A stretch of DNA of 64,000 bases from Candidatus Bathyarchaeota archaeon (GTDB lineage: Archaea; Thermoproteota; Bathyarchaeia; Bathyarchaeales; Bathycorpusculaceae): NCBI GenBank assembly GCA_026014465.1, contig JAOZID010000010.1:838303-902302 (forward strand), read 5' to 3'. Of the stretch, positions 24,047 to 48,775 are shown piece after piece. A program made the position numbers and the translations under genes. The number at the start of each line of letters is the position of its first letter. Position 1 is the first letter of the stretch. The notes under the pieces were generated by a model. It saw only the letters and a list, made by a program, of their open reading frames with translations, was not told the origin of the DNA and did not search any database.

Positions 24047-24134
24047 GCAGGGGTCTCCAAGCCAGGTCAACGGAGTAGGGCTTAGGACCCTATCGCGTAG
24101 GCGTTCGTGGGTTCGAATCCCACCCCCTGCACCA
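24047..24134 (+). tRNA. tRNA-Leu (anticodon UAG), class II with long variable arm, CCA encoded
   Basis: Hand fold. Acceptor gcagggg/cccctgc, D arm ctcc..ggag, anticodon stem taggg/cccta with loop cTTAGga, variable arm tcgcgtaggcgttc, T arm gtggg-ttcgaat-cccac, then a-cca. Confidence 0.9.
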
Positions 24135-24147
24135 TATATAAATAAAC
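24109..24147 (+). repeat. attL: tRNA-Leu 3' end plus 13 nt flank
   Basis: gggttcgaatcccaccccctgcaccatatataaataaac; 36/39 identical to 48737-48775. Confidence 0.85.
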
Positions 24148-24191
24148 TACAGGGGGTTTGTTCTGGCGATGTTAAGCGGTTTTTTGTCATG

Positions 24192-25484
24192 TTAAAGCTT
24201 CCTTTTTCTAAAGATTTTAGCGTCTTGAAAATCGGTGACATATTCAAATCCTGCCTCTATTAGGCTGCAGACGTCTTTTTCGGTTTTAGCTACTTTAGAG
24301 ATGTAGTCGGTTTCTCCTTGGAAGAGGGCTTCTTCGAGTTGGATGTATAGCAGCGTGTTTTTGATGTTTTTGTGGCCGAGCCTTTGCATGACGTAGTAGA
24401 TGTCTTTGGTTTGATGGTAGAGTATGGTGCCTTTCCAGTGTCGGAAGGTGTGGAAGTGGATTTTCATCAGTCTTGGGTTGCTGAGCTTGCGGGCTAACCG
24501 TTTTCTTTGAATGCAGAATAGTGTTCCGAAGTGGTCAACTGGCATGGGTGCATGTGAAAAGATTCTTTCGCCGTAGATTTTAGGTATCTGCGTCAGCATT
24601 TCCAACATTTTATTGCTTAGGTGTACGACTCTTGGGTTACTGTTTTTTTCGGCTGTGATGTTTACGACTTTGCTTTCGAAATCTATGTCGTCCCATTTGA
24701 GCTGCCAAATTTCGCCGCATCGTGCGCCTGTTTCTTTGAGCATCTGCAGGAAAGTTGCCACGCGTTGGGTGCAGCCTGCGATGAGCTGGTCGATTTCGGT
24801 TTCTTTGGGAATGAAGGGCAGTTTGCGTATGCATTGGTATAGTGGGGCGTCCCATTTGCCGCCAGCCATTTTTAGGAATGAGCTGTAGGCGTCGACTGCG
24901 TTGTTTTTTCTGCCGTTGCTCCAGGTTTGTTTAGCTATGACTGCTTTGATTGTTTCGGGGTCGTAGAGGTCTGCGCCGCGTTTTACCATAACAAAGAGCA
25001 GTTTTGAGCGTCCAAGTATGGTTTGTTCGCTGTAGCCGCCTTTTTTCAACCACCAGATGTATTCAACGATTTTTCCTTTTACGTCAGGTTCGTTTCTCCG
25101 CAGAACTTCGGCTGTTTGAGGTTCTGCTGCCAAGTTTTTCGTCTCCATGACGCATATTTGGCTACCCTCTAGTATGCCCTCGAAGGTTTTTAATGACTTC
25201 GTATCAACGGTTGAAATATTTTCAATGGTTCGCTTTGCCTGCTGCAGGTCGTTTGGGTCTGAGAATCGCAGGCCACAGTCCCGGCAGATCCATCGTTGAA
25301 TCTTTTGTCCATAAAAAATTCGGTTGCCATCCCGCCAAACTTTTTTGGAGTTGCATCGTGGGCATTGGGGGCTGACGTCGGCGGAGCCGTCTGCAGACTC
25401 CGACTTACATGAGTTTGAACCGGCTTTGGTGGTGCCAAATACGCAGTCTGGGGGTTGTGTCGCGTTTGGTGTAAGTTCAGCCAT
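24192..25484 (-). CDS. int: tyrosine recombinase / integrase with N-terminal zinc ribbon
   Basis: CPRCNSKKV...CRDCGLRF ribbon. C-terminal catalytic blocks ARCGEI (Arg), HTFRHW (His-x-x-Arg), LGHKNIKNTLLYIQL (His..Tyr). Confidence 0.9.
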   Translation of the reverse strand: MAELTPNATQPPDCVFGTTKAGSNSCKSESADGSADVSPQCPRCNSKKVWRDGNRIFYGQKIQRWICRDCGLRFSDPNDLQQAKRTIENISTVDTKSLKTFEGILEGSQICVMETKNLAAEPQTAEVLRRNEPDVKGKIVEYIWWLKKGGYSEQTILGRSKLLFVMVKRGADLYDPETIKAVIAKQTWSNGRKNNAVDAYSSFLKMAGGKWDAPLYQCIRKLPFIPKETEIDQLIAGCTQRVATFLQMLKETGARCGEIWQLKWDDIDFESKVVNITAEKNSNPRVVHLSNKMLEMLTQIPKIYGERIFSHAPMPVDHFGTLFCIQRKRLARKLSNPRLMKIHFHTFRHWKGTILYHQTKDIYYVMQRLGHKNIKNTLLYIQLEEALFQGETDYISKVAKTEKDVCSLIEAGFEYVTDFQDAKIFRKRKL

Positions 25485-25504
25485 TCCCTCCCACTCTACC
25501 TAAA

Positions 25505-25762
25505 CTACGATTCAATTTGTTCTAAGTCAGGAATGCCGAAAGCATTACACAGATTCTTTAGTGCCTGTAAAGCCTTAGCCTGTTTTTTCTGGTCGGAAAT
25601 CACAAGAATTCTTGACTTTAGCAGTTCAAGCTCAATTTTAAGGTCCAGCTCTTCAATTAGTTGTAGTCTTTGTTCATGGTCGCTTAGCACAGTGTTGATT
25701 TTGTTTAGGATAGCGCCGATGTCTGCGATGATTTCTTGAATGGTTACTCGTTTGGGCTTCAA
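25505..25762 (-). CDS. small coiled-coil protein, unknown function
   Basis: 85-aa heptad-rich ORF just upstream of int on the same strand. Confidence 0.45.
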   Translation of the reverse strand: MKPKRVTIQEIIADIGAILNKINTVLSDHEQRLQLIEELDLKIELELLKSRILVISDQKKQAKALQALKNLCNAFGIPDLEQIES

Positions 25763-25861
25763 CTATTTGTCACCTTGACCAACTCTCAGGCAGAACGTAA
25801 AAACTATCTATCGTCGCAACGAGATCATCTCGTTGTAGAGGGCGGCAACGAGACTATTCTT

Positions 25862-26251
25862 TTAAGGATACATCTTTAGCGCAGTTATCAACGCTTGGAG
25901 CTGGTCTTCTGGAGCCGTTAGAAGTAAAACATTCAGGTCTTTTTTTCTCAGTTCTATAGCCGCTCTTCCTCTTACGCTCAACTTGTAGAGGGGTGAGATA
26001 AAATGTGGTCTTGAATACCTAATGCCTTGAGTTTCCAGCCAATGCTGTTTATAGAGCGCTTTAACTCGTCTATCGACGTTTTGTTTTCCCTTGTGCCTAA
26101 ACCCCTTGATGGCTCTAACTTCTTTGAATATGTCGTAACTCGCCAAAAGCTTCCCATCTGGATAGAGAATCAAAAATATTAGGAAATTAAGGCTGGCTTC
26201 TCTACCGCTAAAAACCTTAAGACATGTGCCTTTACCTCGCTTCCCCGCCAT
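25862..26251 (-). CDS. winged-helix DNA-binding protein (PadR-like)
   Basis: 129 aa; FLIFLILYPDG..SYDIFKEV...VDRRVKALYKQHWLE pattern of PadR-type wHTH. Confidence 0.5.
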   Translation of the reverse strand: MAGKRGKGTCLKVFSGREASLNFLIFLILYPDGKLLASYDIFKEVRAIKGFRHKGKQNVDRRVKALYKQHWLETQGIRYSRPHFISPLYKLSVRGRAAIELRKKDLNVLLLTAPEDQLQALITALKMYP

Positions 26252-26429
26252 AGATGTCTACTCCCCAGACGGGAAGGAGGCAAAAACTGTGATGCCGCTG
26301 GCTGAAGGAAGTTTAGTTTAAAGAAGTATGGCAGCAAAAATATCATATTATCAAATACCTACATTGAGTGATTACCAAGCGGCTCACCTTAGTTGATTTC
26401 TAGACCGTTGAAATTAACCATAAAAGGCG

Positions 26430-26448
26430 AACTCCCTCGGAGGGAGTT
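26430..26448 (+). promoter_or_regulatory. palindromic box copy a (AACTCCCTCGGAGGGAGTT)
   Basis: Perfect 9+9 palindrome; cataaaagg TATA-like element 4 nt upstream. Confidence 0.6.
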
Positions 26449-26685
26449 TGATACTAGTGTAGAACAGTAATCCATTGCCAGCGAGTGTCTCTTTGAATCG
26501 TCAGAATTGTAGATTATATCACTGTTCAGGTCATTAGTTATGTTCCATACACTAATGAAAGGGCAACCAAGAAGAGACTAAAGGGAGAATTGAAGGGGCT
26601 TTGGGCAGTTCTTCGGCACATCGTTTTTTGGTGTCTCTTCTTGGCTGTCAAAGGTTTTTGTAACTAGCTTGAAGCATAAAAAGAG

Positions 26686-26703
26686 AACTCCCTCGGAATG
26701 AGG
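26686..26703 (+). promoter_or_regulatory. palindromic box copy b (AACTCCCTCGGAATGAGG)
   Basis: cataaaaag 2 nt upstream. ATG of 26705 ORF 2 nt downstream, consistent with a leaderless promoter. Confidence 0.65.
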
Positions 26704-26704
26704 C

Positions 26705-27706
26705 ATGTTTTTTACTTCTCTATCAGACCTTTTGACAAATAACAGGGTTGAGCGTTCCTTCCGTTCAATCTTCTCTTGGCGTTGGCTAATGGTAAAGAAA
26801 AAAGACGAACACAAGCTTAACTTAGAACTCAGGGTTGACTATCACTCTTCCCGCTTCTTTGCTCTTCTTTTTCCTGTTCTCTATTCTGTTGCTTTAGCTA
26901 TTTTCTGTTTTGCTTACAAAATAATGCCTGGTCCGGAGTTTCTGATTTTAGGTTTTCTGGTTTACGCAGCGTACAACAAGAAAACTTGGGGTTTCTTGAA
27001 GGATTGGCTTCCATTCATTACTATTTTTGTCTCCTACGAAATCCTCTATAGCGTAGTTGGTATGACCGTTGCAAACCGTCTCAATTCAGGTCCACTTAAT
27101 TTGGAGATGCAGTTATTTGGTCAAATTCCCAGTTTGCTTCTACAGCAAACTATCCGAATGCCTATTTTAGATTACACAGGCGCATTCTTCTATTCAGCTT
27201 ATTTCTTTCTCCCAACAATATTTGCATTCGTTCTTTGGAAGAAAAGCCCTAAAAACTACTGGAAATACATGATTGCATTTGGCGTATGTACCTTCTCTGC
27301 GCTGATAACATTTCTTTTCTATCCCGTAGCTCCTCCATGGATTGCCATTCCAAACGTTACCCCAATCTTAACCACTTCAGTGGATGCTAGCTTAGGTCTT
27401 CCGGTTTACAAGTGGATTTTTAATTTCCTCAATCCAGACTTGTATGCTGCTTTTCCAAGTATGCACTCAGCTTTACCTTGGCTGGTTTTCCTCTTTGCCT
27501 TCAAGACTTGGAAATGGAAAGCTCTCCCGATGATAGTTTTTCCTGTTGGAACTTGGTTTAGCGCAGTTTACTTAGGTGAACACTATTTCGTTGACGTTTT
27601 AGGCGGAATTGCCTATGCTACCGTCGCTTTCATAGCTGTAAATACAATTTTGCCATTCCTGTCTTGCCGCTTGAACCTATTAAAAAAGCATATTCCCCAA
27701 CTCTGA
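26705..27706 (+). CDS. PAP2-superfamily membrane phosphotransferase/phosphatase (Aur1/Ipt-like)
   Basis: Multi-TM. FPSMHSA and GEHYFVDVLGG resemble PAP2 C2/C3 motifs (S-x-H ... H-x-x-x-D). Confidence 0.6.
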   Translation: MFFTSLSDLLTNNRVERSFRSIFSWRWLMVKKKDEHKLNLELRVDYHSSRFFALLFPVLYSVALAIFCFAYKIMPGPEFLILGFLVYAAYNKKTWGFLKDWLPFITIFVSYEILYSVVGMTVANRLNSGPLNLEMQLFGQIPSLLLQQTIRMPILDYTGAFFYSAYFFLPTIFAFVLWKKSPKNYWKYMIAFGVCTFSALITFLFYPVAPPWIAIPNVTPILTTSVDASLGLPVYKWIFNFLNPDLYAAFPSMHSALPWLVFLFAFKTWKWKALPMIVFPVGTWFSAVYLGEHYFVDVLGGIAYATVAFIAVNTILPFLSCRLNLLKKHIPQL

Positions 27707-27762
27707 GAAAAAATTGGACGGGTGGGGCTAAGTTTTTTGATTATCCTTCTTATGAGTTGGAA

Positions 27763-28086
27763 TCAATTAGATGTTGAAAAGGTCTGAGTGGCGTTTTCTA
27801 TTGCTGTTTCGCTTATTTGTTTCTCAATAAGTCGATAGTTGCTTGCCATAGCTTGTGACAAACAATATGTTGTACCGTATCCGTCTTGAATTGTACGAAC
27901 AAGATGGTTCTTTTGGAGAATTTCAAGATGATGGGTGATGGTTTTATAGCTAAGCTTAAGGCGCTTTGAAAGTTGATTAGCGTTTTGTGGTTCTTCTTTT
28001 AGGGTTCTGAGTATAATCGCTCTGCTTGGTCCGCCTCTATTGCCAGTTAAAAGTTTCCAAAAAGGAGGAAAAAGGGGGGTTGTCAT
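27763..28086 (-). CDS. ArsR-family wHTH transcriptional regulator
   Basis: RAIILRTLKEEPQNANQLSKRLKLSYKTITHHLEILQKNHLV. Confidence 0.8.
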   Translation of the reverse strand: MTTPLFPPFWKLLTGNRGGPSRAIILRTLKEEPQNANQLSKRLKLSYKTITHHLEILQKNHLVRTIQDGYGTTYCLSQAMASNYRLIEKQISETAIENATQTFSTSN

Positions 28087-28196
28087 GGAACGTTATGTCC
28101 ACATCGTTGTAACGTATTGTTTGGAAGGCTGATAAAAAAACAGCCTGCCTTGACATCTTTTAGCTCTGACGTATGCATCGTTTTCATATCAGATTC

Positions 28197-28997
28197 CTAA
28201 TTGAACTCTTTGCGCTTGAACATAATCAAGCCTACGACTGTCGTAACAATTAGGTAGACTGCCATGATTGCTAATCCTTCTGGAACAGTAGGATTGTAGG
28301 ATGTCATTGTTGTGCTGCCAAAGTGGTTCACAGTTACATTAGGCGGATAGGGGTTTTGAAGTATAGTTGACATAATTGATCCGCCGTAACTTAGGCTAAA
28401 CCATGGTTCTACAGGAATCATACCTGCAATTTGGCTGATGATACTAAATCCTAACATGAGAACAACAATGTCTACAATGAATGCGTTAGTGCTGCTCTTG
28501 AATAGTGAGCTTACAAAGAAGACGAATCCAACGATGGCTGCAAGGTAGAAGTAGGCAAACAGCACTGACAAACCAAATTCAGACGGAACAGCGTTATAGT
28601 ACAGCCCAGTCAACGTTATAGACGCTGCAAATACGCCAAATGTGATGCATGCTGCTATGAAAGCGGACAACCACTTACCTATGTAAATCACTGACCTGCT
28701 AATAGGGTTTGGAACACTAAAGTATCCTGTTTTATTCTGGAACTCGCCAGATATGGCATCTCCGCCAAAGAAAACTACTGACAGCGTTATGAATATGGGC
28801 GAAAATGTTCCCCATAATCCAAAGATACCCTTGCCCACGAAATAAGCTAAAGCCACGCTCATTACAAGCGTTAAAGCCATCAGTATAAGAAAACGCCTTG
28901 ACCTGATATAGTCAAGCAAGGTATACTTCATTATGACGCCTATCTGTGCGAATTTGGACGGAACTTTGTTAATACATCCAGATTTTGTTCTAATCAT
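28197..28997 (-). CDS. ABC-2 type transporter permease
   Basis: 6 hydrophobic segments, directly downstream of and abutting the ABC ATPase. Confidence 0.75.
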   Translation of the reverse strand: MIRTKSGCINKVPSKFAQIGVIMKYTLLDYIRSRRFLILMALTLVMSVALAYFVGKGIFGLWGTFSPIFITLSVVFFGGDAISGEFQNKTGYFSVPNPISRSVIYIGKWLSAFIAACITFGVFAASITLTGLYYNAVPSEFGLSVLFAYFYLAAIVGFVFFVSSLFKSSTNAFIVDIVVLMLGFSIISQIAGMIPVEPWFSLSYGGSIMSTILQNPYPPNVTVNHFGSTTMTSYNPTVPEGLAIMAVYLIVTTVVGLIMFKRKEFN

Positions 28998-28998
28998 T

Positions 28999-29937
28999 TT
29001 ATTTTCCTCCTTTTACTAGTTTGAGATAAGCCTCTTCAAGCGCTGATGATGCCGGTTTGAAGCTGACTAACCCAATTTTCAAAGCGAAAATATCGGCGAG
29101 AACTCGTTCCTGCACGTCAATTCCGCCCGCAAAATGAACCAACAGCGTATTCTCATCTTTTTCGTCAGCCGACTCTACGCCCGAAATTGAAGTGACCTTG
29201 CTCATTATTCCAGGTGTGATTGAGTGGCGTATGCCTACTTCGACGATGTTTTCTCCGTTAGATGCCTTTGCTGTTACGTTAGCAAGTGTGTCATGGACGA
29301 TCAGTTTACCTTGATCAACCATTGCAACTTCATCGCAGACATCTGCGACTTCACTGAGAATGTGTGAGCTCATGAAAATCAGTCTTTGATGGTTTTTTAG
29401 GGACTTTATTATATCTCTGACTTCGCTCATTCCCCGTGGATCCAGCCCTGAGGTGGGTTCGTCTAGCAGAATTATACAAGGGTCGCTTAGAAGCGCTGAG
29501 GCTATGCATATTCTCTGTTTCATGCCCTTGGAGAACTTGTTGACTCTTTTGTCAATCCAGTCTTCCATTTTAACTTCTGAGATTGAATATTCTATTCTGC
29601 TCTGTTGCTCAGAACTTGGCACTCCTCGGATTTCAGCAATCATTTTTAGTGCTTCTCTTGCGGTTAGTGAGGAGTAGATTTCTGGGGTTTCAATTAATGC
29701 GCCGACAGATGCGAGTGCTTTCTCTTTCTGTTTGTGCACGTCAACTCCGTTTATGAGAGCTTTTCCCGAAGAAGGCGTGATTAGGTCGGTAAACATTTTG
29801 AGGGTTGTTGTTTTTCCCGCGCCGTTAGGGCCAAGAAAACCGACGCATTTTGCGCCTTCCGCTTTGAGATTTAGGTTTGAAACAGCAGTAAAAGAACCGT
29901 ACTGTTTCGATAGGTTTACTGCTTCAATTGATGGCAT
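28999..29937 (-). CDS. ABC transporter ATP-binding protein (ABC-2 subfamily)
   Basis: Walker A GPNGAGKTT, signature FSKGMKQRICIA, Walker B IILLDEPTSGLD. Confidence 0.9.
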   Translation of the reverse strand: MPSIEAVNLSKQYGSFTAVSNLNLKAEGAKCVGFLGPNGAGKTTTLKMFTDLITPSSGKALINGVDVHKQKEKALASVGALIETPEIYSSLTAREALKMIAEIRGVPSSEQQSRIEYSISEVKMEDWIDKRVNKFSKGMKQRICIASALLSDPCIILLDEPTSGLDPRGMSEVRDIIKSLKNHQRLIFMSSHILSEVADVCDEVAMVDQGKLIVHDTLANVTAKASNGENIVEVGIRHSITPGIMSKVTSISGVESADEKDENTLLVHFAGGIDVQERVLADIFALKIGLVSFKPASSALEEAYLKLVKGGK

Positions 29938-29985
29938 TTTGATTCACCTTTATCTCAGTCCATTAGCGGAGACACTTAAAAGGCG

Positions 29986-30003
29986 GACTCATTCCGAGGG
30001 AGT
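29986..30003 (-). promoter_or_regulatory. palindromic box copy c (minus strand reads ACTCCCTCGGAATGAGTC)
   Basis: 49 nt upstream of the ABC ATPase ATG (29937). A/T-rich elements on both sides (cttaatta / ttaaaagg). Confidence 0.6.
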
Positions 30004-30032
30004 AATTAAGAAACAACGGAAAAAAAGATAGT

Positions 30033-30329
30033 TTAAGTTTTTATGCCTAATCTTGGGAATTTGAGTTGCCCCACATACTTCATTATCCACTGCACAAAGT
30101 CGTCGTATGCTTGAGCGCCTTCTTTTGTTAAAACGACCAAGCCGTTTTCGTCAATTGTGATGAAGCCCTTCTCAGACATCCAGCCTAAATACTTAATCAG
30201 TTTATCATATGCTAGACCCGTTGTAGTGGCGAGGGCTGTTTTATTCATCCTGTTTTTCTCTTTCAGCGCCTTGATTATTCGGGCGATGACGTAGAGGTCA
30301 GGTTTAGAACTCGGCTCTCCTGAGTTCAT
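30033..30329 (-). CDS. winged-helix DNA-binding protein
   Basis: 98 aa; NKTALATTTGLAYDKLIKYLGWMSEKGFITIDENGLVVLTKEG is a wHTH recognition helix plus wing. Confidence 0.6.
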   Translation of the reverse strand: MNSGEPSSKPDLYVIARIIKALKEKNRMNKTALATTTGLAYDKLIKYLGWMSEKGFITIDENGLVVLTKEGAQAYDDFVQWIMKYVGQLKFPRLGIKT

Positions 30330-30999
30330 TGCTAAACCACCGTAACTCCCAAAGAAGATTATCTAATGCCCTAATCTGATTATAACGCCTCGAAAGGTCG
30401 TTTCTTAGCAGTAAGAAGACTACCAGCAGCGAAACTAGGCCTAACAAAGGACCACCGATTACATCTATTCGGTGAAATAGGGTAAATGTGATAAAATTCT
30501 CTGCTATACCTATCGCAAAGAATGTTATTACCCAGTAGGCGACAGCTTTAAGCAACCCATATACGGCATAGCTTAGTCGTCCTCTCGAAATTTTGTCAAA
30601 TGTTTCGTCCCAATCCAAATCCAGCAAGATTTCTAGTGCTGAGGGAAAGCCCTGAGAGAGCGCTTCTTTCCAGTCACCTGTTCGGACTGAATCGACATTT
30701 TTTCTAACTACCAATACGCCTATTGCAACGCCCGTAATGGGGATAAAAAGTGACAGAACAGATATTATGATGATGTGAGGTTTGTCAAGGGGTATAGCTA
30801 AGTTTAGGAAGCCTATTGACGCGCCTACTGCTAGGAAAACTATGATCGAACTGATAACAATCAGGGCGAATTTCTTTAGAGAACTGGAGAGCGCGTTGTA
30901 TTTTTTGACTTGGTCAAGAGTTTCCATTAACTCAGAGACTTTCGAAACTACGCTTTCCTCTGTTAATCCTGAGTTGGTTCCAACTTTTTTCTCTGACAT
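30304..30999 (-). CDS. integral membrane protein, unknown function
   Basis: 231 aa, ~5 TM segments. Overlaps the downstream wHTH gene by 26 nt (operon). Confidence 0.6.
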   Translation of the reverse strand: MSEKKVGTNSGLTEESVVSKVSELMETLDQVKKYNALSSSLKKFALIVISSIIVFLAVGASIGFLNLAIPLDKPHIIIISVLSLFIPITGVAIGVLVVRKNVDSVRTGDWKEALSQGFPSALEILLDLDWDETFDKISRGRLSYAVYGLLKAVAYWVITFFAIGIAENFITFTLFHRIDVIGGPLLGLVSLLVVFLLLRNDLSRRYNQIRALDNLLWELRWFSNELRRAEF

Positions 31000-31074
31000 G
31001 TTATTACCGCCTAAACTCGTAATGAAGGCTTAAGAGTCAAAACATTTACGTTGACTCCAAGTGAATATAAACTA

Positions 31075-31092
31075 AACTCCCCCTGAATGAGT
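31075..31092 (+). promoter_or_regulatory. palindromic box copy d (AACTCCCCCTGAATGAGT)
   Basis: aatataaac 2 nt upstream on plus strand. Lies in the intergenic region upstream of minus-strand gene 30304..30999. Confidence 0.55.
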
Positions 31093-35826: not shown

Positions 35827-35858
35827 AACTCTTTAATTTCTAAGTAGATAACAAGCCT

Positions 35859-40535: not shown

Positions 40536-42176
40536 TTATTCTCCGCCCATGCCACCAGGCATTCCGCCGGGGCCGCCTCTGGGGGATTTAGCTGTTATAA
40601 TGTCGTCTACGCGTAGGATCATAGCTGCTGATTCCGCTGCTGATTTGATGGCTTGCTCTTTGACGACTATGGGTTCGATGACGCCGTTATCGATGCTGTT
40701 TTGGAGTTTGCCAGTGAATATGTTGATGCCCATGTATTTGCCGTCTTCTTTGTCATGTACTTGACGTAGCTCTATGAGTGTGTCAATTGATTCTAAGCCG
40801 CCGTTCTCTGCAAGCGTGCGTGGAATGACTTCGACTGCGTCAGCAAAGGCTTCCACGGCGAGTTGTTGTCTTCCGCCAATTTTGGTTGAGTAATTGCGTA
40901 GTTCTTTGGCGATTTCGATTTCGATGGCTCCGCCGCCAGCGACTATTTTGTTATTTTCCGTTACGTCTGAAATTACGGATAACGCGTCAGTTATGACTCT
41001 TTCAGCTTCATCAACCATTCGCTCAAGCCCTGCACGTATTAGAATGGCTACTGAGTGAGGGTCTTTGCATTTTTCGACGAAAATCATTTTGTCATCGCCA
41101 ATCTTGCGTTCTTCCACTAAACCCGCAAAACCCAAATCTGCCGCCTTTAAATCATTCAAATTAGAGCTCACTCGCCCTCCTGTAGCTCTCGCGAGTTTTT
41201 CCATGTCGGATTCTTTTACTCGACGTGCTGCCATGATGCCTTCTTTAGAGAGAAAGTGTTGTACCATGTCGTCGATACCTTTTTGGCAGAACACAATGTT
41301 TGCGCCTGAAGCTTTAATCTTGGTCACCATCTCTTTTAGTGTGCTATCCTCTTGGTCTAAGAAAGCTTTCATCTGGTTTGGTTCATGGATGCGTATTTCC
41401 GCAGTTATTTCGGTTTTTTCAATTTCTAACGCAATGTCTAAAAGGGCAATTTTTGCGTTCTCTATCTTTTTGGGCATTCCCGAATTAATGACTTCTTTGT
41501 CCACGATTATGCCTCTGACGAGTTGTGTCTCGATGAGGCTTTTTCCTGTCTTTTTCACCAGTTGTATGTTATCTATGTCGGCTATCGTCTGGTCTGCGGC
41601 CTTCTGGGTTACTTGTTTTACCGCTTCTAGGGCTATTTCTGCAAAGTGCTCTTTAGCACCACCCACAGCTTTGCTGCCCATAGCGGTCAAAGCGACTTTC
41701 AGCATCATTTTTTGATTCTCTACGTCAATGGGCACCGCGTTTTTTGCAATTATCTCGATTGCTTTCTGTGCTGCTTTACGGTATCCTGCGACAAGTATCA
41801 TTGGGTGGACGTTTTGGTCTAGGAGTTGTTCGGCTTTTTTGAGCAGTTCACTGGCTAACACTACGACGGTTGTTGTTCCGTCGCCGACCATGTCGTCTTG
41901 GGTTTTGGCGATTTCAATCATCATTTTTGCCGCTGGGTGCTCCACGTCCATTTCCTTGAGAATTGTGGCGCCGTCGTTGGTTATGGTGATGTCGCCTAAG
42001 CTGTCGATAAGCATTTTATCCATGCCCCGTGGGCCCAGAGTAGTTTTAAGCACTTCACCGATGACTTGGGCGGCCATAATGTTGTTTCGTTGGGCTTCTT
42101 TGCCCCTACTTCTGGTGGTTCCTTCCTTTAGGATGAGGACCGGTTGACCACTTTGGGTTTGTGTTAAATATGCCAT
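40536..42176 (-). CDS. ths: thermosome subunit (group II chaperonin)
   Basis: 546 aa, VGDGTTTVVVLA ATP-binding motif, ITNDGATIL, C-terminal GGPGGMPGGMGGE tail. Confidence 0.95.
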   Translation of the reverse strand: MAYLTQTQSGQPVLILKEGTTRSRGKEAQRNNIMAAQVIGEVLKTTLGPRGMDKMLIDSLGDITITNDGATILKEMDVEHPAAKMMIEIAKTQDDMVGDGTTTVVVLASELLKKAEQLLDQNVHPMILVAGYRKAAQKAIEIIAKNAVPIDVENQKMMLKVALTAMGSKAVGGAKEHFAEIALEAVKQVTQKAADQTIADIDNIQLVKKTGKSLIETQLVRGIIVDKEVINSGMPKKIENAKIALLDIALEIEKTEITAEIRIHEPNQMKAFLDQEDSTLKEMVTKIKASGANIVFCQKGIDDMVQHFLSKEGIMAARRVKESDMEKLARATGGRVSSNLNDLKAADLGFAGLVEERKIGDDKMIFVEKCKDPHSVAILIRAGLERMVDEAERVITDALSVISDVTENNKIVAGGGAIEIEIAKELRNYSTKIGGRQQLAVEAFADAVEVIPRTLAENGGLESIDTLIELRQVHDKEDGKYMGINIFTGKLQNSIDNGVIEPIVVKEQAIKSAAESAAMILRVDDIITAKSPRGGPGGMPGGMGGE

Positions 42177-42611
42177 ATTATTCTATCCTCAATATTATGT
42201 TCAAATAATATTCTTTAGCATCGTCAGCGTTTTAGGAATTCACGGGGCTCTCCCATATCTATGAGTCATGCCGAAGAAGACGGGTTTGACCTGCAAGAGA
42301 CTGAAGGCTTGATACTTTCAACTGTTAAAGAACCGCTGACTTTGTAAGTTATATATTGTCATACAGGGATTTAAACACGTTTAGAGAACAAGCGAGTACT
42401 AAGGTATTCACCATTATTGCTCTATTGTTAATACTTAACTATTTGTGCCTCAATTCCATATGTATTACTCGAAAAGAACTTGCGAAAAGACTGAAGCGTT
42501 TCAGTAACATTAAGTAATAGTGTGCTGTTTAGCGTAAGCATAGGCAATTAGGAAATAAGGGCGCCGCCATAGAAGAAGCTTAATGTTTTATGGCAGCACC
42601 AATTTTCAGAG

Positions 42612-42983
42612 TTGAAAGGGATTAACTTGACAAAAACTGATGATATTTTATTGGAGTTGAATAGAACAGTCGCTAGGTATCTGCTGGGAGTTCGCCCGTT
42701 TCAATACAAGAAAAAGACATATCATTTAATCGACAATTACGTTGCAGTACCTTACATGAAGTGTGATGTGTGTGGGACTTATCCGACATACGAGGTTTCC
42801 GTTATTGAAAGCAAAGAGGGCACGACGCTACGCGTGGGAAACGATTGTATTGATAATTTGACAGGACAAAACGTTTCAGAATGGTTTAAAAGTTTCAGAA
42901 AAAAACGCGAAAGCATCATGGCAAACAGAAAATACACTGACCAGCTACCACGAGGACAGGAACAAATAGCGGTTGCTACCTGA
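42612..42983 (+). CDS. hypothetical protein with CxxC...C motif
   Basis: 123-aa ORF (TTG start in track); CDVCGTYPTYE...GNDCIDNL. No family recognised. Confidence 0.4.
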   Translation: MKGINLTKTDDILLELNRTVARYLLGVRPFQYKKKTYHLIDNYVAVPYMKCDVCGTYPTYEVSVIESKEGTTLRVGNDCIDNLTGQNVSEWFKSFRKKRESIMANRKYTDQLPRGQEQIAVAT

Positions 42984-43089
42984 GCATAAGCGCCACGCGC
43001 CACAACTTAAGAGTTGGGCACAATAGACGTTTATTTAAAGCGCTGTTAAATCTTGGGCAGTCAATTTTTGTATACTAACCATTCAAAAA

Positions 43090-44145
43090 TTAAATGTTTA
43101 CTCGAAAGGCCCAATTCATGTAAGCGCTAATATCTCTCGAAAGCACCAGTGAAGGCTCAACGTAACAGTGAAGGCTACACTTTTGGCAGTGACCTATTTT
43201 TTTCCAATCAAAACCTGAAACGGCATCTTTAACGCCTTTTTTAAAGACCGAGACACTGCTCGCGTAGTCGTTGTGGACATAGCAAGGCAAAACCAAGTTT
43301 CCATGGGGGTCAATATTTATCATTGCCCAAGGCTTGCATTGCCAGTTTTTCTCTTTAGCCAGAACTTTTAGATAACCAATTGAGTTAACAATGGGATAAC
43401 CTTGCTGCTTCATTTCAATAAGCCTACGCGCCATTTTCGGTACCTTATCAATAGCAGCGGAGGATGCATTAGCATTGCAGTATTCATGTGCGACGGCTAC
43501 GGAGATTTTTGTGCCCAACGTTCGCGCTAACTCCACCAAACTTTCCGTTTCACCGATGTTCTCCGCCATCACAGTGGTGTTGATGGTTACTGAAACTTTT
43601 TCTTTCGCCGCCTCTATGCCTTGCACTGCTTTTCTAAAGCTTCCACTGACCCCTCGGATAGCATCATGAGTTTTCTCCAACCCATCCAAGGAAACATAGA
43701 CGACACCATTAATGTACTTGGCTACCTCGCCTATTTTGGCTTCAAGCAGCGTACCATTGGTTATCAAACTTGTATGCAAAGGCAGAGACCGGGAAAAAGC
43801 AAGAATATCCACCAAATCACGCCTAAGCAACGGTTCCCCACCTTCAAATGCTACTCCAACGGCGCCTGAATTGTATATCTGTTTCAGAATGGCTTTCGTT
43901 TGCGGTAAGCTTGGATCGGGGCTGGGTCTTTTCCAGAAAGGGCACATTTTGCAGCGAAGGTTGCAATTGTAAGTAAGCTTGTGCCCACAAAAGAAAGGAA
44001 CCTTCGCACCAAGCATGTTTGAGATTAAGACACGGTAAACTCGAATTCCTAGCCAGAGGGGTTCTACATATTGGCGAATGGTTTTTTCTCCTACAGGATA
44101 ATTAGAAATCCACCTACAGCTCCCACGGTAAATGAAAGGGTGCAT
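43090..44145 (-). CDS. radical SAM protein, HpnH-like (C-terminal Cys-rich DUF3463/SPASM-like domain)
   Basis: CNLRCKMC is the CxxxCxxC cluster. C-terminus is CKPWAMINIDPHGNLVLPCY...DWKKIGHCQKCSLHCYVEPS, which parallels the C..PW...G...PCY...W...C..C..HC..E pattern I recall from HpnH-type enzymes. Confidence 0.75.
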   Translation of the reverse strand: MHPFIYRGSCRWISNYPVGEKTIRQYVEPLWLGIRVYRVLISNMLGAKVPFFCGHKLTYNCNLRCKMCPFWKRPSPDPSLPQTKAILKQIYNSGAVGVAFEGGEPLLRRDLVDILAFSRSLPLHTSLITNGTLLEAKIGEVAKYINGVVYVSLDGLEKTHDAIRGVSGSFRKAVQGIEAAKEKVSVTINTTVMAENIGETESLVELARTLGTKISVAVAHEYCNANASSAAIDKVPKMARRLIEMKQQGYPIVNSIGYLKVLAKEKNWQCKPWAMINIDPHGNLVLPCYVHNDYASSVSVFKKGVKDAVSGFDWKKIGHCQKCSLHCYVEPSLVLSRDISAYMNWAFRVNI

Positions 44146-44453
44146 TAATTCTTTAGTTCTCTGTCTTCACTGTAGTTTCGGTCCTCATGAACTTCTTCTT
44201 CTGCCGCATCTTGTCTTTCTTGTTCACGCACGCTTTCAGCTTCTCCTTTGGCTTTTGCTCTATCTTCGGCTTGACCTTTTGGCGGATAAACAGTATCCAA
44301 CCAAACTTCAAACTGCACCTTATAATCAGCACTGGAAAAAGCCCAATCACATAATCCACTGATGACCTTGCCAATATCAATGTCGTGTTCGTCTGAAAGA
44401 CTCTTCAAAAATTCTTCCCACTTTGCAGGTAAAGTAATTGAGAAACTATCCAT
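44145..44453 (-). CDS. ribbon-helix-helix-like small protein with long acidic C-terminal tail
   Basis: From Met-20 of the track ORF: MDSFSITLPAKWEEFLKSLSDEHDIDIGKVISGLCDWA (beta strand plus two helices), then ...EDRAKAKGEAESVREQERQDAAEEEVHEDRNYSEDRELKN. Its TAA shares one base with the ATG of the radical SAM gene (TAATG). Confidence 0.55.
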   Translation of the reverse strand: MDSFSITLPAKWEEFLKSLSDEHDIDIGKVISGLCDWAFSSADYKVQFEVWLDTVYPPKGQAEDRAKAKGEAESVREQERQDAAEEEVHEDRNYSEDRELKN

Positions 44454-44611
44454 AAAATGAAATCTCCACACTCTTATTAGTGCTAACGTGTATTTAAGTA
44501 TCAAACGCACTTGAAGCGTTCAATTGCCGCCAAGCAGTAGACGAATAAAAGTGACCATGGATTAGGTCCGAGAAGGCATTTTGCCCTTGATGCCATTTAC
44601 TAATCCTCTAC

Positions 44612-44974
44612 TTACTTGAAGAATTTAGTTGCTCTTACAGAAGTCTGCGACCCGGAGACTGAGGGATTAATTTCATAAAACATGTTCTTGAAGAAATTAG
44701 TGGCTTCATCATTACAGACGTTGAAATCGTTAGTTCTCATGGAAAGTGCACAATGGTTCTGAGCGTTTTTCTCGATAAAATTAAGCAGTTCTCTACCATG
44801 GCCTTTACGTTTTTCCAAGCAAGCAGTATGTATATCTTCTAAATTACTGTAGAGTATGGTCCTAGCCCAAGACACCGTTTTTCCATCAACAAAAAGCGTA
44901 TACAATATTTCATCGTCTACTTCGCTTTCCTGCTGAGTTTCAACAATTTCCACTTTGGCAATTCTGTCCATCAT
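44612..44974 (-). CDS. small GNAT-like acetyltransferase
   Basis: 120 aa; ACLEKRKGHGRELLNFIEKNA resembles the R/Q-x-x-G-x-G/A acetyl-CoA loop. Confidence 0.5.
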   Translation of the reverse strand: MMDRIAKVEIVETQQESEVDDEILYTLFVDGKTVSWARTILYSNLEDIHTACLEKRKGHGRELLNFIEKNAQNHCALSMRTNDFNVCNDEATNFFKNMFYEINPSVSGSQTSVRATKFFK

Positions 44975-45093
44975 TTGAGCCTTCTCAGAATATAGTTCAC
45001 CTTTTTTTGTTAACCTGAAAATCAGGGTGTCGAGACCAAAAAGGTAAGCTTACCAATAAAATAAGTGGTGTCATATTTATTCGCATTCCACTC

Positions 45094-45621
45094 TCATAAT
45101 GCATTGCACTGTGTAACCCGGATTCGCAAATCTTTTTTCCTTTCAAGCAAATCAGTAACCTCGTCAAATTCACAGGTGTAATCCTTATGCTCCTTAACCA
45201 ATCTTTTTAGTCTACATTGGCTAAAGTAACCCTCGTATAATCCAAACAACAGTATCCCCAAGAAGCCTAAGATAAGAAAATCAGAGAACGCTTCCGCTCC
45301 ACTCGTATAAACTGCGAGTAGTATAGGGAGCAAGATTCCAATAGCACTTAGGTAGGATGAAATTGCGCCTATAAGTGCTCCCATAACATCTATTTTGTTA
45401 TCGTTGATGCTCTTAGCAAGGCTGGCTTTTCGTTCCCAAAGCGTTGCGGTATCATTTGATTCCACTGCACTGAACAAATTGTCAAAAGCTTCGACCGACA
45501 TATTGCCTGTTCTGTTGAGAAACGCATGGTTCATTTTCTGGTGATACGACTCTCGACTTTCTATATACTTCTCTTTAAGAGCGGTATTATCAATGTAGGG
45601 CGTTTTTCGAACAACAGCCAA
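45094..45621 (-). CDS. hypothetical membrane protein (two TM helices)
   Basis: 175-aa ORF. Soluble N-terminal half, then ALIGAISSYLSAIGILLPILLAVY and FLILGFLGILLFGLY helices. Confidence 0.5.
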   Translation of the reverse strand: MAVVRKTPYIDNTALKEKYIESRESYHQKMNHAFLNRTGNMSVEAFDNLFSAVESNDTATLWERKASLAKSINDNKIDVMGALIGAISSYLSAIGILLPILLAVYTSGAEAFSDFLILGFLGILLFGLYEGYFSQCRLKRLVKEHKDYTCEFDEVTDLLERKKDLRIRVTQCNAL

Positions 45622-45753
45622 TGCATACTTTGTGTTTTCAAGAAAGCTCTTTCCTGATACTTGGTCATTGAGCGTCAGGTTGAAGCGTGTTTGTTTTTGA
45701 CTTTTGATTATTTGCTTAGAGTTTTCGATTCTTTTTCACATAACTAAATGGAT

Positions 45754-45906
45754 CTACCTTTGTTCCTTTTGCAGTCGCAGTCTTGTTGCAATCTCTTGTG
45801 AGATTCTTTCGAATCCTACTGCTAACTCTGTGCTGTCAACTTCATCTATGGGATAGAATTTGCCGTCTTGGTCTATGAATACAAGCTCTAATTTTTTATT
45901 AGCCAT
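45754..45906 (-). CDS. possible 50-aa small protein
   Basis: Hand-translated MANKKLELVFIDQDGKFYPIDEVDSTELAVGFERISQEIATRLRLQKEQR; below track cutoff, no family recognised. Confidence 0.3.
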   Translation of the reverse strand: MANKKLELVFIDQDGKFYPIDEVDSTELAVGFERISQEIATRLRLQKEQR

Positions 45907-46075
45907 GTCTTTCAACTCTTGGTGTAAATTGCATACTGCACAGGTTCTAAACCGGGGGGACCACGACTACTTGGTTCCTTACGCAATCTTACCATGCGTT
46001 GAGGCTAGTCGGCTTCCCCTAATACCTTCCTTCGTTAGGAAGGGCTTAAAATACAGTTACTGTGAGTTGCTGCTA

Positions 46076-46219
46076 CTATTCTTTTTTGACTATCCACGTC
46101 TTTATCGCGTCTTCGACAGCGCGGGATAGGTCGCCTTTTTTTCCGCCAAATTTTTGAACTGTCTTTATTCTGAGTTGCTTTTCGAGTTCATCAGGTAAAT
46201 CTACGCTTATTCGACCCAT
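46076..46219 (-). CDS. 47-aa ribbon-helix-helix (CopG-like) protein
   Basis: Hand-translated MGRISVDLPDELEKQLRIKTVQKFGGKKGDLSRAVEDAIKTWIVKKE, the classic RHH pattern (beta strand ISVDLP, two helices); below track cutoff. Confidence 0.6.
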   Translation of the reverse strand: MGRISVDLPDELEKQLRIKTVQKFGGKKGDLSRAVEDAIKTWIVKKE

Positions 46220-46629
46220 AGTTCATCTTCGGCTTGTTTTTTGTGCACTGTGAGCCCGCATCCCTTATTTTTCTGATCTATTTGAGTTCACTTATGCGCA
46301 TATACTGTTATGTGCACAGTAGCTTATATACATATGCCAACAAGTGTTAAAGATTAAAAAAACTCCACACCCACTAGTATTCGTTTATCGTGGAATCCAC
46401 AACTACTCTACAACCATGACAATTTAACACTTTGTCACTCGTGCAGCTTTTCGATTACGAAGAAGGGCATTTGACAATAATGAAGAGTGATAAATTGAAA
46501 AAAGGCAACATAGAAATGCTTGTCTGCTATGCTGTTTATTGAGTGGAATTTTGTGAATCATCGCAGATATTTTGATTCTCCTAATTGTGGAAGCTGCATA
46601 TACAAAGGAAGCAGTTACGGTTGGGGACA

Positions 46630-46993
46630 ATGCTCCTTAAACATCTGGAAGTATTGATTATTTTGGAGGCACTTACAGGACAGACTAACAAGCTTATTGT
46701 ACGAGTAGTTGACTGTCAAAAGAAACCAATCCCGAATGTAAAGGTTAAAGTTTTCAAGATAGAAAAAGAGCCAATAACACCCGAGCAGTGGATTGAGAAT
46801 CTAAAAAATGGGGGCTCCATTTAAAAGATTAGTTGTCTCGATGAACACCGATAATAATGGTGCCATAACCGCCGAGCTCCCCCAAGGGTCTTATGAAGCT
46901 AAAGTCGAAAGATACGGTTTTAATCAAACTTGCGATTTAACCCAAAATGTTGAAGTTCTCGTTGTAAAACCGAAAAAGCATTGGTGGTACTGA
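46630..46993 (+). pseudogene. carboxypeptidase-regulatory-like (prealbumin-fold) domain protein split by a frameshift in an A6/G5 homopolymer (46803-46814)
   Basis: ORF 46585..46824 ends ...KLIVRVVDCQKKPIPNVKVKVFKI...ENLKNGGSI*. ORF 46808..46993 continues ...MNTDNNGAITAELPQGSYEAKVERYGF. Together they form a single domain. Confidence 0.55.
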
Positions 46994-47085
46994 CAAAAGA
47001 CACAGACTCTTCCGATTAATCATTGCAGTGAAATGAAAAGCTTAACTTCCCTTTTTCCATAGCTGTAAATGGATTATGGTTAAAT

Positions 47086-47598
47086 ATGCAATACGACAAT
47101 GTCATCTTTCCAAATTCCACAGACTTTCACTGTAGGAAATGCGGAATATGCTGCAGAAATCAACCACCAGATATTAACTTCAAAGAACAAAAAAGAATAC
47201 AAACGGCAGGTTACAAAAATTTCATGCAAAACCCATCCAACCCAAAGAACCGAAACATTCGCAGAAAAAAAGACGGAAGCTGCTTCTTCTTCACCAAAGA
47301 AAATACATGCAAGATTAACTCTATTAAACCATCAATATGCATTCTAGAACCATTCATTATAGCAGACTTTGATTATAACACGAACATGATTTTTCTCAAT
47401 TTGAATCCTTGTGCAGTCAATAATTGTAAAGGTGTCATGACTGAGGAAAAGATAGCTATAGAAGAAATTGGGAAAGCCGCCCAAACTATCGTTTCGGATT
47501 GTTTAGAAATAGTCGCGGAGAAAACAGGGCTCTTAGTAACCGACAAAAAAGTTGCTTTTTTAACGAGGCAACTATTTAATGATTCAAATCTCATCTAA
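47086..47598 (+). CDS. YkgJ-family zinc/iron-chelating cysteine-cluster protein (CxxCxxCC)
   Basis: FHCRKCGICCRN...DGSCFFF...CKINSIKPSICILEPF. Confidence 0.75.
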   Translation: MQYDNVIFPNSTDFHCRKCGICCRNQPPDINFKEQKRIQTAGYKNFMQNPSNPKNRNIRRKKDGSCFFFTKENTCKINSIKPSICILEPFIIADFDYNTNMIFLNLNPCAVNNCKGVMTEEKIAIEEIGKAAQTIVSDCLEIVAEKTGLLVTDKKVAFLTRQLFNDSNLI

Positions 47599-47646
47599 AA
47601 CAAGATAGGGCTAGCTGGTCCAAGAAATATAAGCGCCTTTTAAATC

Positions 47647-48015
47647 CTAAAACATGATGCTGGAAATCAACATGTCGGCAGTTGCTCTGTTACAGGCTGT
47701 TGGGGTATTGTATAGCACCGCTATTCTAAGAACAGCCTTAACATCGACATCATGAGGCTGAGACTCAAGAGGATCCCAAAAAAATATTAAACAATCAAGT
47801 TTTCTATTGGCGATCATACTTCCTAGCTCCATATCACCGCCATAAGGACCACTATTTAGCAAATTTATATCCAACAGGGTTTTTTCGATAATTCTTTTTC
47901 CTGTGGTTCCTGTTGCATACAGACAGTATTTGGAAAGCGTTCCTTTGTTGAAGTCGCACCATTCAACAATGTCTTTTTTCTTGTTATCGTGCGCTACAAG
48001 AGCAATACTCTTCAT
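47647..48015 (-). CDS. mgsA: methylglyoxal synthase
   Basis: IALVAHDNKKKDIVEW...LYATGTTGKRI...GPYGGDMELGSMI...LIFFWDPLESQPHDVDVKAVLRIAVLYNTPTACNRATAD. Confidence 0.9.
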   Translation of the reverse strand: MKSIALVAHDNKKKDIVEWCDFNKGTLSKYCLYATGTTGKRIIEKTLLDINLLNSGPYGGDMELGSMIANRKLDCLIFFWDPLESQPHDVDVKAVLRIAVLYNTPTACNRATADMLISSIMF

Positions 48016-48144
48016 GGTTACTCACTCCTAAAAGTAATAGAGTACGAAGTATTCGTGCCCCCTATAAAAGCATGCTCGAACATTAACCAGTATCTCTTAT
48101 AGAAGAACGATATTTATGGATCAAACTTCCGTAAGAAAAACGGG

Positions 48145-48357
48145 TCATGTGCCTGAAGCAAGAAAGGCGGGCCGCTTGGATTTGAGTCTATCAACAAAGT
48201 CTAAATCCGCTTTCGCACGTTCCAGTTTCTTTAGAGCATTCTTTCTAGAGCGGGTCACGTTGGGCGTTTCCACCTTTAGTTTGCGAGCAATCCTATAATC
48301 AGACAACCCATCAACATTCAAACGTAAAATTGCCTTCTCCCGCTCAGTCAACGCCAT
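48145..48357 (-). CDS. small HTH protein (Tfx/LuxR-like), paralog B
   Basis: LTEREKAILRLNVDGLSDYRIARKLKVETPNVTRSRKNALKK. Confidence 0.65.
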   Translation of the reverse strand: MALTEREKAILRLNVDGLSDYRIARKLKVETPNVTRSRKNALKKLERAKADLDFVDRLKSKRPAFLASGT

Positions 48358-48736
48358 AGCTATGTCTCCTCTTCAGAAGTGTCATGTAAAGTCACGCCTT
48401 CGGCTAGCAAGTCCTTCTCTGATGCTTTGTAGGCGTCTACGCCAAAGCTTGTCATAGCCCAGCACCAACCGCGCCGCTCAACAACCACCGAATCCAATTC
48501 CTTTGGCTGCCGCATGAAGTGCATTTGACCTTCTTTCGAGGAACACCAGTAAATAGATCGGCTGGCAATGCTTTGCCGCAGTGAGGACAATTGATTATCT
48601 TTCGACTCAAAGATGCCATCTCCTGCCAAACCTGCTACTAGACAGCAGATGTCCTTAAAAAAGAAAAAAGGGAGAGAAGCTGCGGAGAAACTAAGCTGGA
48701 AATTGGACGCCGATGGTGATACAAGGGCGATTTTTC

Positions 48737-48775
48737 GGGTCCGAATCCCACCCCCTGCACCAAATATAAACAAAC
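48737..48775 (+). repeat. attR: displaced copy of tRNA-Leu 3' end plus flank
   Basis: gggtccgaatcccaccccctgcaccaaatataaacaaac. The 21-nt perfect core cgaatcccaccccctgcacca is shared with 24114-24134. Confidence 0.85.

Follow-up and report, generated by a model that had tools for sequence, protein, structure and literature searches.

A probable cryptic integrated element carrying a chaperonin-containing block at the tRNA-Leu(UAG) gene of a Bathyarchaeia genome

The present study concerns a 64,000-nt stretch of DNA from a Candidatus Bathyarchaeota archaeon (assembly GCA_026014465.1, contig JAOZID010000010.1), hereafter the window, to which all coordinates refer unless a locus is named; loci of relatives retrieved for comparison bear L-numbers (L003-L085 etc.). 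The region 24135-48775 is best explained, with a probability of roughly 0.85, as a cryptic integrated element (element 1) inserted by its own tyrosine integrase into the 3' end of a tRNA-Leu(UAG) gene, within a tandem array. It is termed a cryptic integrated element, or genomic island, because no virus, plasmid or conjugation genes were found. A sequence-only reading of the same DNA had proposed a tRNA-targeted integrated element of ~24.6 kb, and the attachment (att) repeats, the integrase, the break in composition and the differing cargo of relatives all support such an element. A 24.6-kb unit was indeed recovered, but it would be only the newest member of an array that reaches ~53 kb.

The tRNA-Leu(UAG) target was called by both ARAGORN and Rfam, in agreement with the sequence-only reading; in the 64-kb window it is the sole tRNA found by ARAGORN. 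The repeat, composed of the last 26 nt of the tRNA and 13 nt of its trailer, has a second, identically oriented copy at the right boundary of element 1. The previously reported identity of 36/39 positions and the perfect 21-nt core, CGAATCCCACCCCCTGCACCA, were both reproduced. Within the window this is not a common dispersed sequence, as the core occurs at exactly two sites even when 3 mismatches are allowed, and at none in 100 shuffles; a comparison of the core with IMG/VR gave no match. The insert is thus enclosed by direct repeats derived from the 3' end of a tRNA that is itself intact, as in genomic islands. The inverted repeat of the T-arm (GTGGG/CCCAC around a 7-nt loop) would offer a classical core like that of lambda-type sites.

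Between the tRNA and the integrase stop codon lies a conserved arm of the element (P'), which contains, in this order, TATATAAATAAAC, CAGGGGGT and GGCGATG. The second of these motifs is an inverted repeat of the tRNA acceptor strand ACCCCCTG, located ~20 nt downstream of the CCA end, and could serve as an integrase-binding site or form a structure in the 3' trailer. The tRNA together with the 57-nt spacer is ~99% identical among the window, L003 and L004, and the arm motif recurs 3' of the tRNA in most loci, including integrase-less ones, with a consensus of roughly [T/A]ATATAA..AAA, then GGGGGT, then GGCGATG or GGGTGATGG. The tRNA-derived part of the 39-nt repeat and its degree of identity stand as first described, but the remaining 13 nt, taken earlier for host flank, are most likely the arm of an older related element that formerly abutted the tRNA, because AATATAAACAAAC, located just to the right of the attR core, fits the arm consensus (compare TATATAAACAAACAG in L033). 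Covariation of the arm motif with the tRNA acceptor stem was considered and set aside as an observation only: L085, which has a different tRNA ending in ACCCCCCGCACCA, agrees with it, the arm showing CGGGGGGT opposite ACCCCCCG in an apparent compensatory change, and L084 breaks the pattern.

The gene adjoining the arm encodes a full-length tyrosine recombinase with an N-terminal zinc ribbon some 60 nt from the tRNA, just as the sequence-only reading had stated; all catalytic residues are present. The protein scores 79.6 bits against PF00589 Phage_integrase (cut-off 27.1; E = 3e-22), and R255, K280, H345-T-F-R348 (HxxR), H371 and Y380 align with the active-site motifs of XerA, so that a domain score above the threshold is combined with the full catalytic set of the tyrosine recombinase superfamily. 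In an alignment of 15 sequences (56-95% identity), R255, K280, R348, H371 and Y380 are invariant, as are the ribbon cysteines C41/C44/C67/C70. The nearest solved structures by sequence are those of archaeal XerA, 5hxy and 4a8e, with an E value of only about 1e-9. Identification as XerA, the chromosome dimer resolvase, was rejected, since the score against the XerA equivalog NF040815 is 89 bits with a cut-off of 220 and the protein has an extra N-terminal region of 140 aa with the zinc ribbon. A Type I (SSV-type) integrase was likewise rejected, the gene being unsplit and forming a single open reading frame (ORF) wholly inside the element, 57 nt from attL. The gene is intact, with the att site outside it and overlapping the 3' part of the tRNA, which is rebuilt from element DNA, as for Type II (pNOB8-like) and lambda-style integrases (PMC8371274). 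However, the signature reported for pNOB8-type enzymes, R...YxxR...Y (PMC8371274), is absent, and assignment to that consensus was dropped: the window integrase shows R...HxxR...H...Y, as do XerA and XerC/D. Because of the HxxR motif, the NF040815 score below the cut-off and the unsplit gene, the integrase is classed by its sequence as XerC/D-like, neither XerA nor SSV type. Its homologues number 2778 in the protein collection, and those with a named source are mostly from Bathyarchaeota/Bathyarchaeia. The 85-aa ORF just upstream of the integrase gene gave no Pfam or PHROG match and can be put forward only as a candidate accessory or directionality factor.

The composition of the window breaks sharply at the tRNA, both in G+C (0.42 against 0.49) and in tetranucleotides. 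The G+C content is 0.490 in the left flank (1-24046), 0.423 in element 1 and 0.495 in the right flank (53701-64000), and the tetranucleotide correlation with the flanks, calculated in 4-kb windows, is 0.89-0.95 outside the tract and 0.51-0.77 between 24 and 54 kb. Composition thus differs from that of the flanking chromosome, as is typical for islands. The A+T-rich interior noted earlier was confirmed for 24135-48775, but the tract does not stop there: low G+C runs on for another ~4-5 kb past the earlier right end, to about 53 kb, with values of 0.403 in 48776-51377, 0.396 in 51378-52296 and 0.428 in 52297-53700.

Local alignment with tRNA-Leu, in which the maximal score of 20 shuffles was 28, revealed two further pieces of the tRNA in this extension: a degenerate copy with a score of 55, and a short fragment resembling the 3' end with a marginal score of 31 (Table 1). 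These tRNA 3' fragments in the same orientation, together with the low G+C and foreign tetranucleotides up to ~53 kb, are the reason for considering the region a tandem array, in which, on the simplest reading, the 24.6-kb element would be the tRNA-proximal and newest unit. Elements with tyrosine recombinases are known to use one att site repeatedly, in tandem (PMC6563490). The last island-like gene is that of the truncated ATPase (G+C 0.408; G+C at third codon positions, GC3, 0.371). The next gene, a helix-turn-helix (HTH) regulator at 53023-53694, is host-like (0.458 and 0.536, respectively) and is followed by N-carbamoylputrescine amidase-like and then agmatine deiminase genes. The right end of the array is therefore located between about 52.9 and 53.0 kb. 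A search with both tRNA sequences, that of the window and that of L075 described below, found no further att remnant at 52.9-53.7 kb or at 38.9 kb. In segment 2, the DEAH helicase, which scores 788 bits against TIGR03817 (below the cut-off of 874), alone fills a whole att-bounded remnant.

These features would be explained by the following course of events. A circular form would have carried an attP site containing about 26 nt identical to the 3' end of the tRNA. Recombination of this attP with attB in the chromosomal tRNA, presumably within the 21-26 nt of identity, would have restored an intact tRNA, its 3' end and trailer now being contributed by the element (attL), and the displaced original 3' end would now lie 24.6 kb away (attR). 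Repeated use of the tRNA would push older insertions outward, the newest remaining next to the tRNA, and would leave the helicase, GNAT and truncated ATPase remnants between degenerate tRNA fragments. The whole foreign tract would extend from 24.1 to about 53 kb, and the cargo of element 1 would be a mosaic of a transporter/regulator module and a 9.6-kb thermosome-CBS-radical SAM-mgsA block.

The comparison with other genomes showed that the same site is filled differently elsewhere. In L003 (2.94 Mb contig; integrase 95% identical to that of the window), L004 (469 kb contig; 82%) and L005-L007 (contigs up to 44.8 kb; 90%), the integrase gene is convergent to a 100% identical tRNA-Leu(UAG), a sequence also shared by L009, and the cargo is unrelated to that of the window: an ABC transporter, MFS, cation efflux and HTH_10 genes in L003; SIR2, EVE and helicases in L004; MFS, cupin, PIN, IS110 and NurA in L005-L007. 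The only other gene in common is the 85-aa ORF, in L003. The TrmB-like orthologue upstream of the L005 site is 56% identical, while the integrase is 90% identical, and the chromosomal side of L003 is wholly different, with a tRNA-Thr and another integrase. Such a pattern would be expected for horizontal spread of the integrase module, since it is far more conserved than the flanks of its hosts. In L003 (11591-12569), the tRNA-Thr(GGU) is followed directly by a 286-aa Phage_integr_3 (archaeal SSV-like) integrase, which probably marks another integration hotspot, unrelated to the first and adjoining it back to back.

A survey of the site was based on an exact 56-nt pattern of tRNA-Leu(UAG), which is identical in 64 metagenome loci; the contigs were oriented on the tRNA and classified alongside the loci retrieved earlier. 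An integrase with 57-90% identity was present in about 14 loci, only a 55-66-aa C-terminal integrase stub in about 9, only the conserved arm in about 16-20 (for example L052, where the arm stops after 45 nt), and neither integrase nor arm in about 20-25. Genes downstream of the tRNA were almost all unique to each locus. The upstream flanks of L011 and L040 are 99.6% identical and their DNA after the tRNA is unrelated, so the site is polymorphic within a population. Additionally, the flanks of L011 and L048 are only 94% identical upstream and 100% identical downstream over 2.1 kb; the three loci together represent population-level turnover of the site by elements lacking this integrase and arm.

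The best syntenic relative retrieved was L009 (GCA_026014615.1; HypE 79% and TrmB 52% identical), with the gene order HypE, PQQ protein, TrmB, tRNA-Leu. A scan of species-representative genomes with the left-flank HypE yielded, among the matches listed, two flavobacterial loci only. After the tRNA-Leu of L009 there is no integrase and no arm. The 3-kb ABC-2/ABC/TetR islet (11027-14056) found there instead stops at 17 nt that match the tRNA T-arm perfectly (14040-14056), and represents a remnant without an integrase at this same hotspot. The L009 orthologue (56%) of the CDP-alcohol phosphatidyltransferase gene at 56833-57378 of the window lies 6.6 kb downstream of the tRNA, compared with 32.7 kb in the window. 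L016 retains the order S3, L22, HypE, tRNA-Leu of the window, with only an integrase stub. The comparison with L009 and L016 supports reading the window region as an insertion relative to its relatives. A contiguous gene order shared by all relatives, which would have spoken against an element, was not seen, homologous integrases being accompanied by different cargo; the site is empty of the element or filled differently in related genomes, as for other islands. The empty tRNA-Leu site sought in relatives was obtained only in part: L009 lacks integrase and arm, but no strictly empty site of the same species was available.

Several points weigh against this interpretation. The source is a metagenome-assembled contig; neither an excised circle nor an attP junction was observed, nor an attB of the same species that is strictly empty. 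Among the syntenic relatives, even the closest are far removed (HypE 79%, TrmB 52-61%), and synteny of the right flank rests on one gene. For the chaperonin block considered below, the direction of transfer is deduced from G+C and gene context only, and L075 may be of the same species as the window. Finally, with 3 mismatches between the 39-nt attL and attR copies, the element may no longer excise. This last point leads to the most serious alternative, namely a fixed island that integrated as proposed but is now domesticated and immobile, the integrase being kept by chance or for another role. Besides the three mismatches and the failure to find a free or excised form, the att core being absent from IMG/VR, this alternative draws on the many related sites that have decayed to stubs and scars, decay being the usual fate, and on cargo that looks useful to the host. 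At the same time, the integrase is full length with every catalytic and zinc-binding residue conserved, the 21-nt core is perfect, and integrases with 90-95% identity in differing contexts indicate recent movement of at least the integrase module. Immobility is accordingly regarded as a substantial possibility, though not the favored one.

The right part of the cargo, designated the chaperonin block, has a close relative in L075 (GCA_026014745.1, JAOZHS010000002.1). The DNA identity is 96.0% over 38933-44533 and 94.2% over 45121-48513, and the proteins are 85-99% identical. The homology spans mgsA through the ribbon-helix-helix (RHH), radical SAM and thermosome genes to the CBS gene, its sole interruption being an extra amylase gene in L075, and it ends abruptly at 38933. 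The L075 copy is enclosed by direct repeats derived from the 3' end of another tRNA (20513-20637), which contains an intron, has an anticodon region reading CAA and was detected by Rfam but missed by ARAGORN; the repeats are at 165-198, 13684-13717 and 20504-20537. The integrase beside that tRNA (256 aa) is only 33% identical to the window integrase. The same block is thus the cargo of a different tRNA-island array, and the two copies probably share a recent common source. L075:1-20637 constitutes a second tandem array, with GmrSD, FRG and two integrase-like genes in one unit and the thermosome block plus an amylase/CBM48 gene in the other.

The housekeeping-like stress cargo was regarded as unusual for a mobile element by the sequence-only reading. 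The genes themselves were confirmed, but their unusual character is accounted for by a shared chromosome-like block that is also present in the tRNA island of L075. A related block in L079-L083 (86-91% DNA identity; thermosome 97%) is located beside TFB and ribosomal protein L35Ae genes, has a G+C content of 0.39 throughout and shows no tRNAs or flanking repeats. In L078, from a genome of about 45% G+C, a 92% identical thermosome lies amid CysRS, PurE, SAICAR synthase and EF-2 genes; this is the same genome as that of L004, and the gene is about 300 kb from its tRNA-Leu element. In total, the window thermosome is 88-99% identical to those of many Bathyarchaeia genomes and contigs. Because related copies occur in core-like contexts, with 39% G+C in L079, the block probably stems from a Bathyarchaeia lineage of lower G+C, in which it would have been chromosome-like DNA before its capture into integrative islands. 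Among the best 120 thermosome matches (none listed below 83% identity), only the island copy maps to the source contig. A thermosome in a core context upstream of the L009 tRNA-Leu, at the edge of the locus, is only 66% identical over 134 aa, which hints at a distinct native thermosome paralogue in the clade of the host. A bolder proposal is that the block is a self-contained stress module shuttled among Bathyarchaeia by tRNA-Leu-specific integrative elements, with the foreign chaperonin expressed and adaptive. This is considered speculative and rather unlikely; if true, archaea would offer a case of a core proteostasis gene acting as mobile accessory cargo.

The abrupt end of the L075 homology at 38933 also bears on the possibility that element 1 arose by fusion of an integrase plus transporter unit (24.1-38.9 kb) with a chaperonin unit lacking an integrase (38.9-48.8 kb), with deletion of the att site between them. 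In L075, the block makes up nearly the whole of a separate, att-flanked 13.5-kb unit without an integrase, a 31-nt motif described below is restricted to 26.4-35.8 kb, and tandem arrays clearly form at the tRNA-Leu site. Nevertheless, neither tRNA has left a detectable remnant near 38.9 kb, and ordinary recombination swapping cargo between elements would look alike, so that a fusion is possible but doubtful.

A provirus or an integrated plasmid with structural or replication genes too divergent to recognize is much less probable than integration of a cryptic element. No capsid, terminase, portal, primase, Rep, ParA/partition or conjugation (VirB4/VirD4) gene was detected with Pfam, NCBIfam and PHROGs among the ORFs tested in 24-53 kb, PHROGs being applied to ten unassigned ORFs; about ten ORFs had no family match, and the absence of hallmarks holds at the sensitivity of sequence profiles only. 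Archaeal virus genes mostly escape recognition by sequence, which counts in favor of a provirus, as do two IMG/VR contigs with 63-65% identical integrases beside a different, intron-containing tRNA (Leu-UAA-like by eye). However, the neighbors of those integrases are methylases, GmrSD, RelA/SpoT, ParB and other integrases rather than virion genes, and most of the 24.6 kb is filled by recognizable cellular-type genes. Least probable of all is an assembly or binning artefact joining low-G+C DNA of another population at shared tRNA-derived repeats: the contig is metagenome-assembled, the block and DNA of another metagenome-assembled genome (MAG) share 94-96% identity and the sequences shared by the junctions are short repeats, but two chimeric joins would be needed with only 21-39 nt shared, more than 15 independent assemblies show the same tRNA-arm-integrase junction, and beyond the tract there is again host-type DNA, including a gene syntenic to L009.

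The element resembles the cryptic integrated elements (CIE) of Thaumarchaeota, which are flanked by attL/attR, mostly occupy tRNA genes, have the integrase as their only conserved gene and carry regulators, transporters and stress or metabolic genes, with a median size of 17 kb (Krupovic et al. 2019, PMC6563490). It shares with them the att repeats, the tRNA site, a XerC/D-like integrase, the lack of virus, plasmid or conjugation hallmarks, similar cargo and tandem reuse of the site; it is larger than their median (24.6 kb). Unlike CIE, it resides in Bathyarchaeia, its integrase belongs to a subfamily with an N-terminal four-cysteine zinc ribbon that is dedicated to tRNA-Leu(UAG), with a related integrase branch at another tRNA-Leu-like gene, and it carries a full thermosome gene and a chromosome-like block among its cargo. 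In Bathyarchaeia of the Bathy-6 group, large regions absent from relatives have been ascribed to lateral transfer, among them one with an integrase-encoding provirus; in the parts of that work available to us, these islands are described at the pangenome level and no tRNA-Leu-specific integrase family, att sites or tandem arrays are defined (PMC11697101). A group II chaperonin on a mobile genetic element has a parallel in virioplankton, where archaeal viruses carry divergent, virus-specific thermosome genes on tailed-virus contigs (PMC5649160), whereas the window gene lies in a non-viral island and is close to the thermosomes of Bathyarchaeia. In a limited literature search, no description of this integrase family or of its tRNA-Leu hotspot was found.

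Beyond an ordinary integrated element, there is evidence for a very common integrase/att system specific to Bathyarchaeia and for a thermosome-containing block that circulates between tRNA islands. Little has been described of the mobile elements of Bathyarchaeia, an abundant and uncultured group of sediment archaea, and the combination of the zinc-ribbon integrase, tRNA-Leu(UAG) and the arm motif marks a hotspot of gene flux in many of their genomes. It could help to find islands and scars in MAGs and, in principle, could provide a tool for site-specific integration in Bathyarchaeia. Moreover, chromosome-like genes would be moving between lineages in tRNA islands, including the thermosome, a family usually treated as vertically inherited, which matters where chaperonin or other "core" genes serve as phylogenetic or binning markers in MAGs.

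Table 1 Features of the tRNA-Leu(UAG) array (wHTH, winged helix-turn-helix; TM, transmembrane)
Feature	Positions	Strand	Support
tRNA-Leu(UAG), anticodon TAG, intact; integration target	24047-24134	+	ARAGORN, Rfam
attL copy of 39-nt direct repeat (tRNA 3' 26 nt + 13 nt trailer)	24109-24147	+	
Conserved element arm (P') between tRNA and integrase stop codon	24135-24191	+	
Tyrosine integrase, 430 aa, convergent with tRNA, ending 57 nt from it	24192-25484	-	Pfam
85-aa ORF just upstream of integrase	25505-25762	-	80% identical to same-position ORF in L003
Left cargo module (transporters/regulators)	26416-35825	+	Pfam
PAP2 protein	26705-27706	+	
ArsR regulator	27763-28086	+	
ABC-2 permease + ATPase	28197-29937	+	
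wHTH + membrane protein	30033-30999	+	
DUF996 protein	31160-31741	+	
MscS	32127-33020	+	
ABC ATPase + 12-TM permease	33263-35748	+	
MarR/HVO_2833-type regulator	36550-37500	+	Pfam
DUF6036 nucleotidyltransferase with HTH	37604-38332	+	Pfam
GerE/LuxR HTH protein	38450-38680	+	Pfam
Shared chaperonin block (9.6 kb)	38933-48513	-	
CBS protein (4xCBS)	39271-40431	-	
Thermosome	40536-42176	-	792 bits vs thermosome-beta model
123-aa ORF	42612-42983	+	
PTO1314-type radical SAM protein	43090-44145	-	
Small ORFs	44145-45621	-	
RHH protein, 47 aa	46076-46219	-	
CxxCxxCC protein	47086-47598	+	
Methylglyoxal synthase (mgsA)	47647-48015	-	183 bits, cut-off 84
attR copy of 39-nt repeat, right end of element 1	48737-48775	+	
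Segment 2: 805-aa DEAH helicase, winged-helix domain, C-terminal MrfA Zn-binding (MZB) domain	48884-51301	+	Pfam DEAD, Helicase_C, MZB
Degenerate tRNA-Leu copy (positions 45-86), old att site	51333-51377	+	38/42 identical plus 3-nt insertion
Segment 3: GNAT acetyltransferase	51539-52021	+	Pfam Acetyltransf_7, Acetyltransf_1
Short tRNA 3'-end-like fragment, possible third old att site	52274-52296	+	21/24 positions, one gap
Truncated AAA ATPase, IetA/CDC48-like fragment	52327-52932	-	Pfam AAA; PADLOC IetA partial match

The cargo of element 1 given by the sequence-only reading, namely regulators, two ABC systems, MscS, thermosome, CBS, radical SAM and mgsA, was identified again by Pfam and NCBIfam (Table 1). 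The left module carries six copies of the 31-nt motif (26416-26446, 26672-26702, 29972-30002, 31833-31863, 33122-33152 and 35795-35825), in which an A/T-rich TATA-like box precedes the palindrome GAACTCCCTCGGAGGGAG. The copies are all intergenic and confined to the transporter/regulator half of the element, and one of them ends 3 nt before the start codon of the PAP2 gene. With up to 3 mismatches, the 18-nt palindrome core gave 6 matches against 0.06 expected by chance, two of these being both strands of one site and the copy at 29972 falling outside the threshold. The motif is absent from all 85 other loci and has the appearance of a common promoter and operator on which a regulator encoded by the island would act.

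PADLOC, applied to ten candidate proteins, reported no complete defence system, only a generic helicase similarity and the truncated IetA-like ATPase without its partner. Homologues of the island RHH protein (79-89% aa identity) were found in L040 (1609-1749), L051 (714-854) and L022 (1821-1874), in each case a few hundred nt after tRNA-Leu(UAG) and in the opposite orientation, and this small gene seems to be recurrent cargo at the site. In the left flank, a 5S rRNA gene (21584-21703), flanked by the genes of ribosomal proteins S3 and L22 on one side and hypE on the other, precedes tRNA-Leu by 2.3 kb and overlaps the mechanically called ORF 21557-21802.

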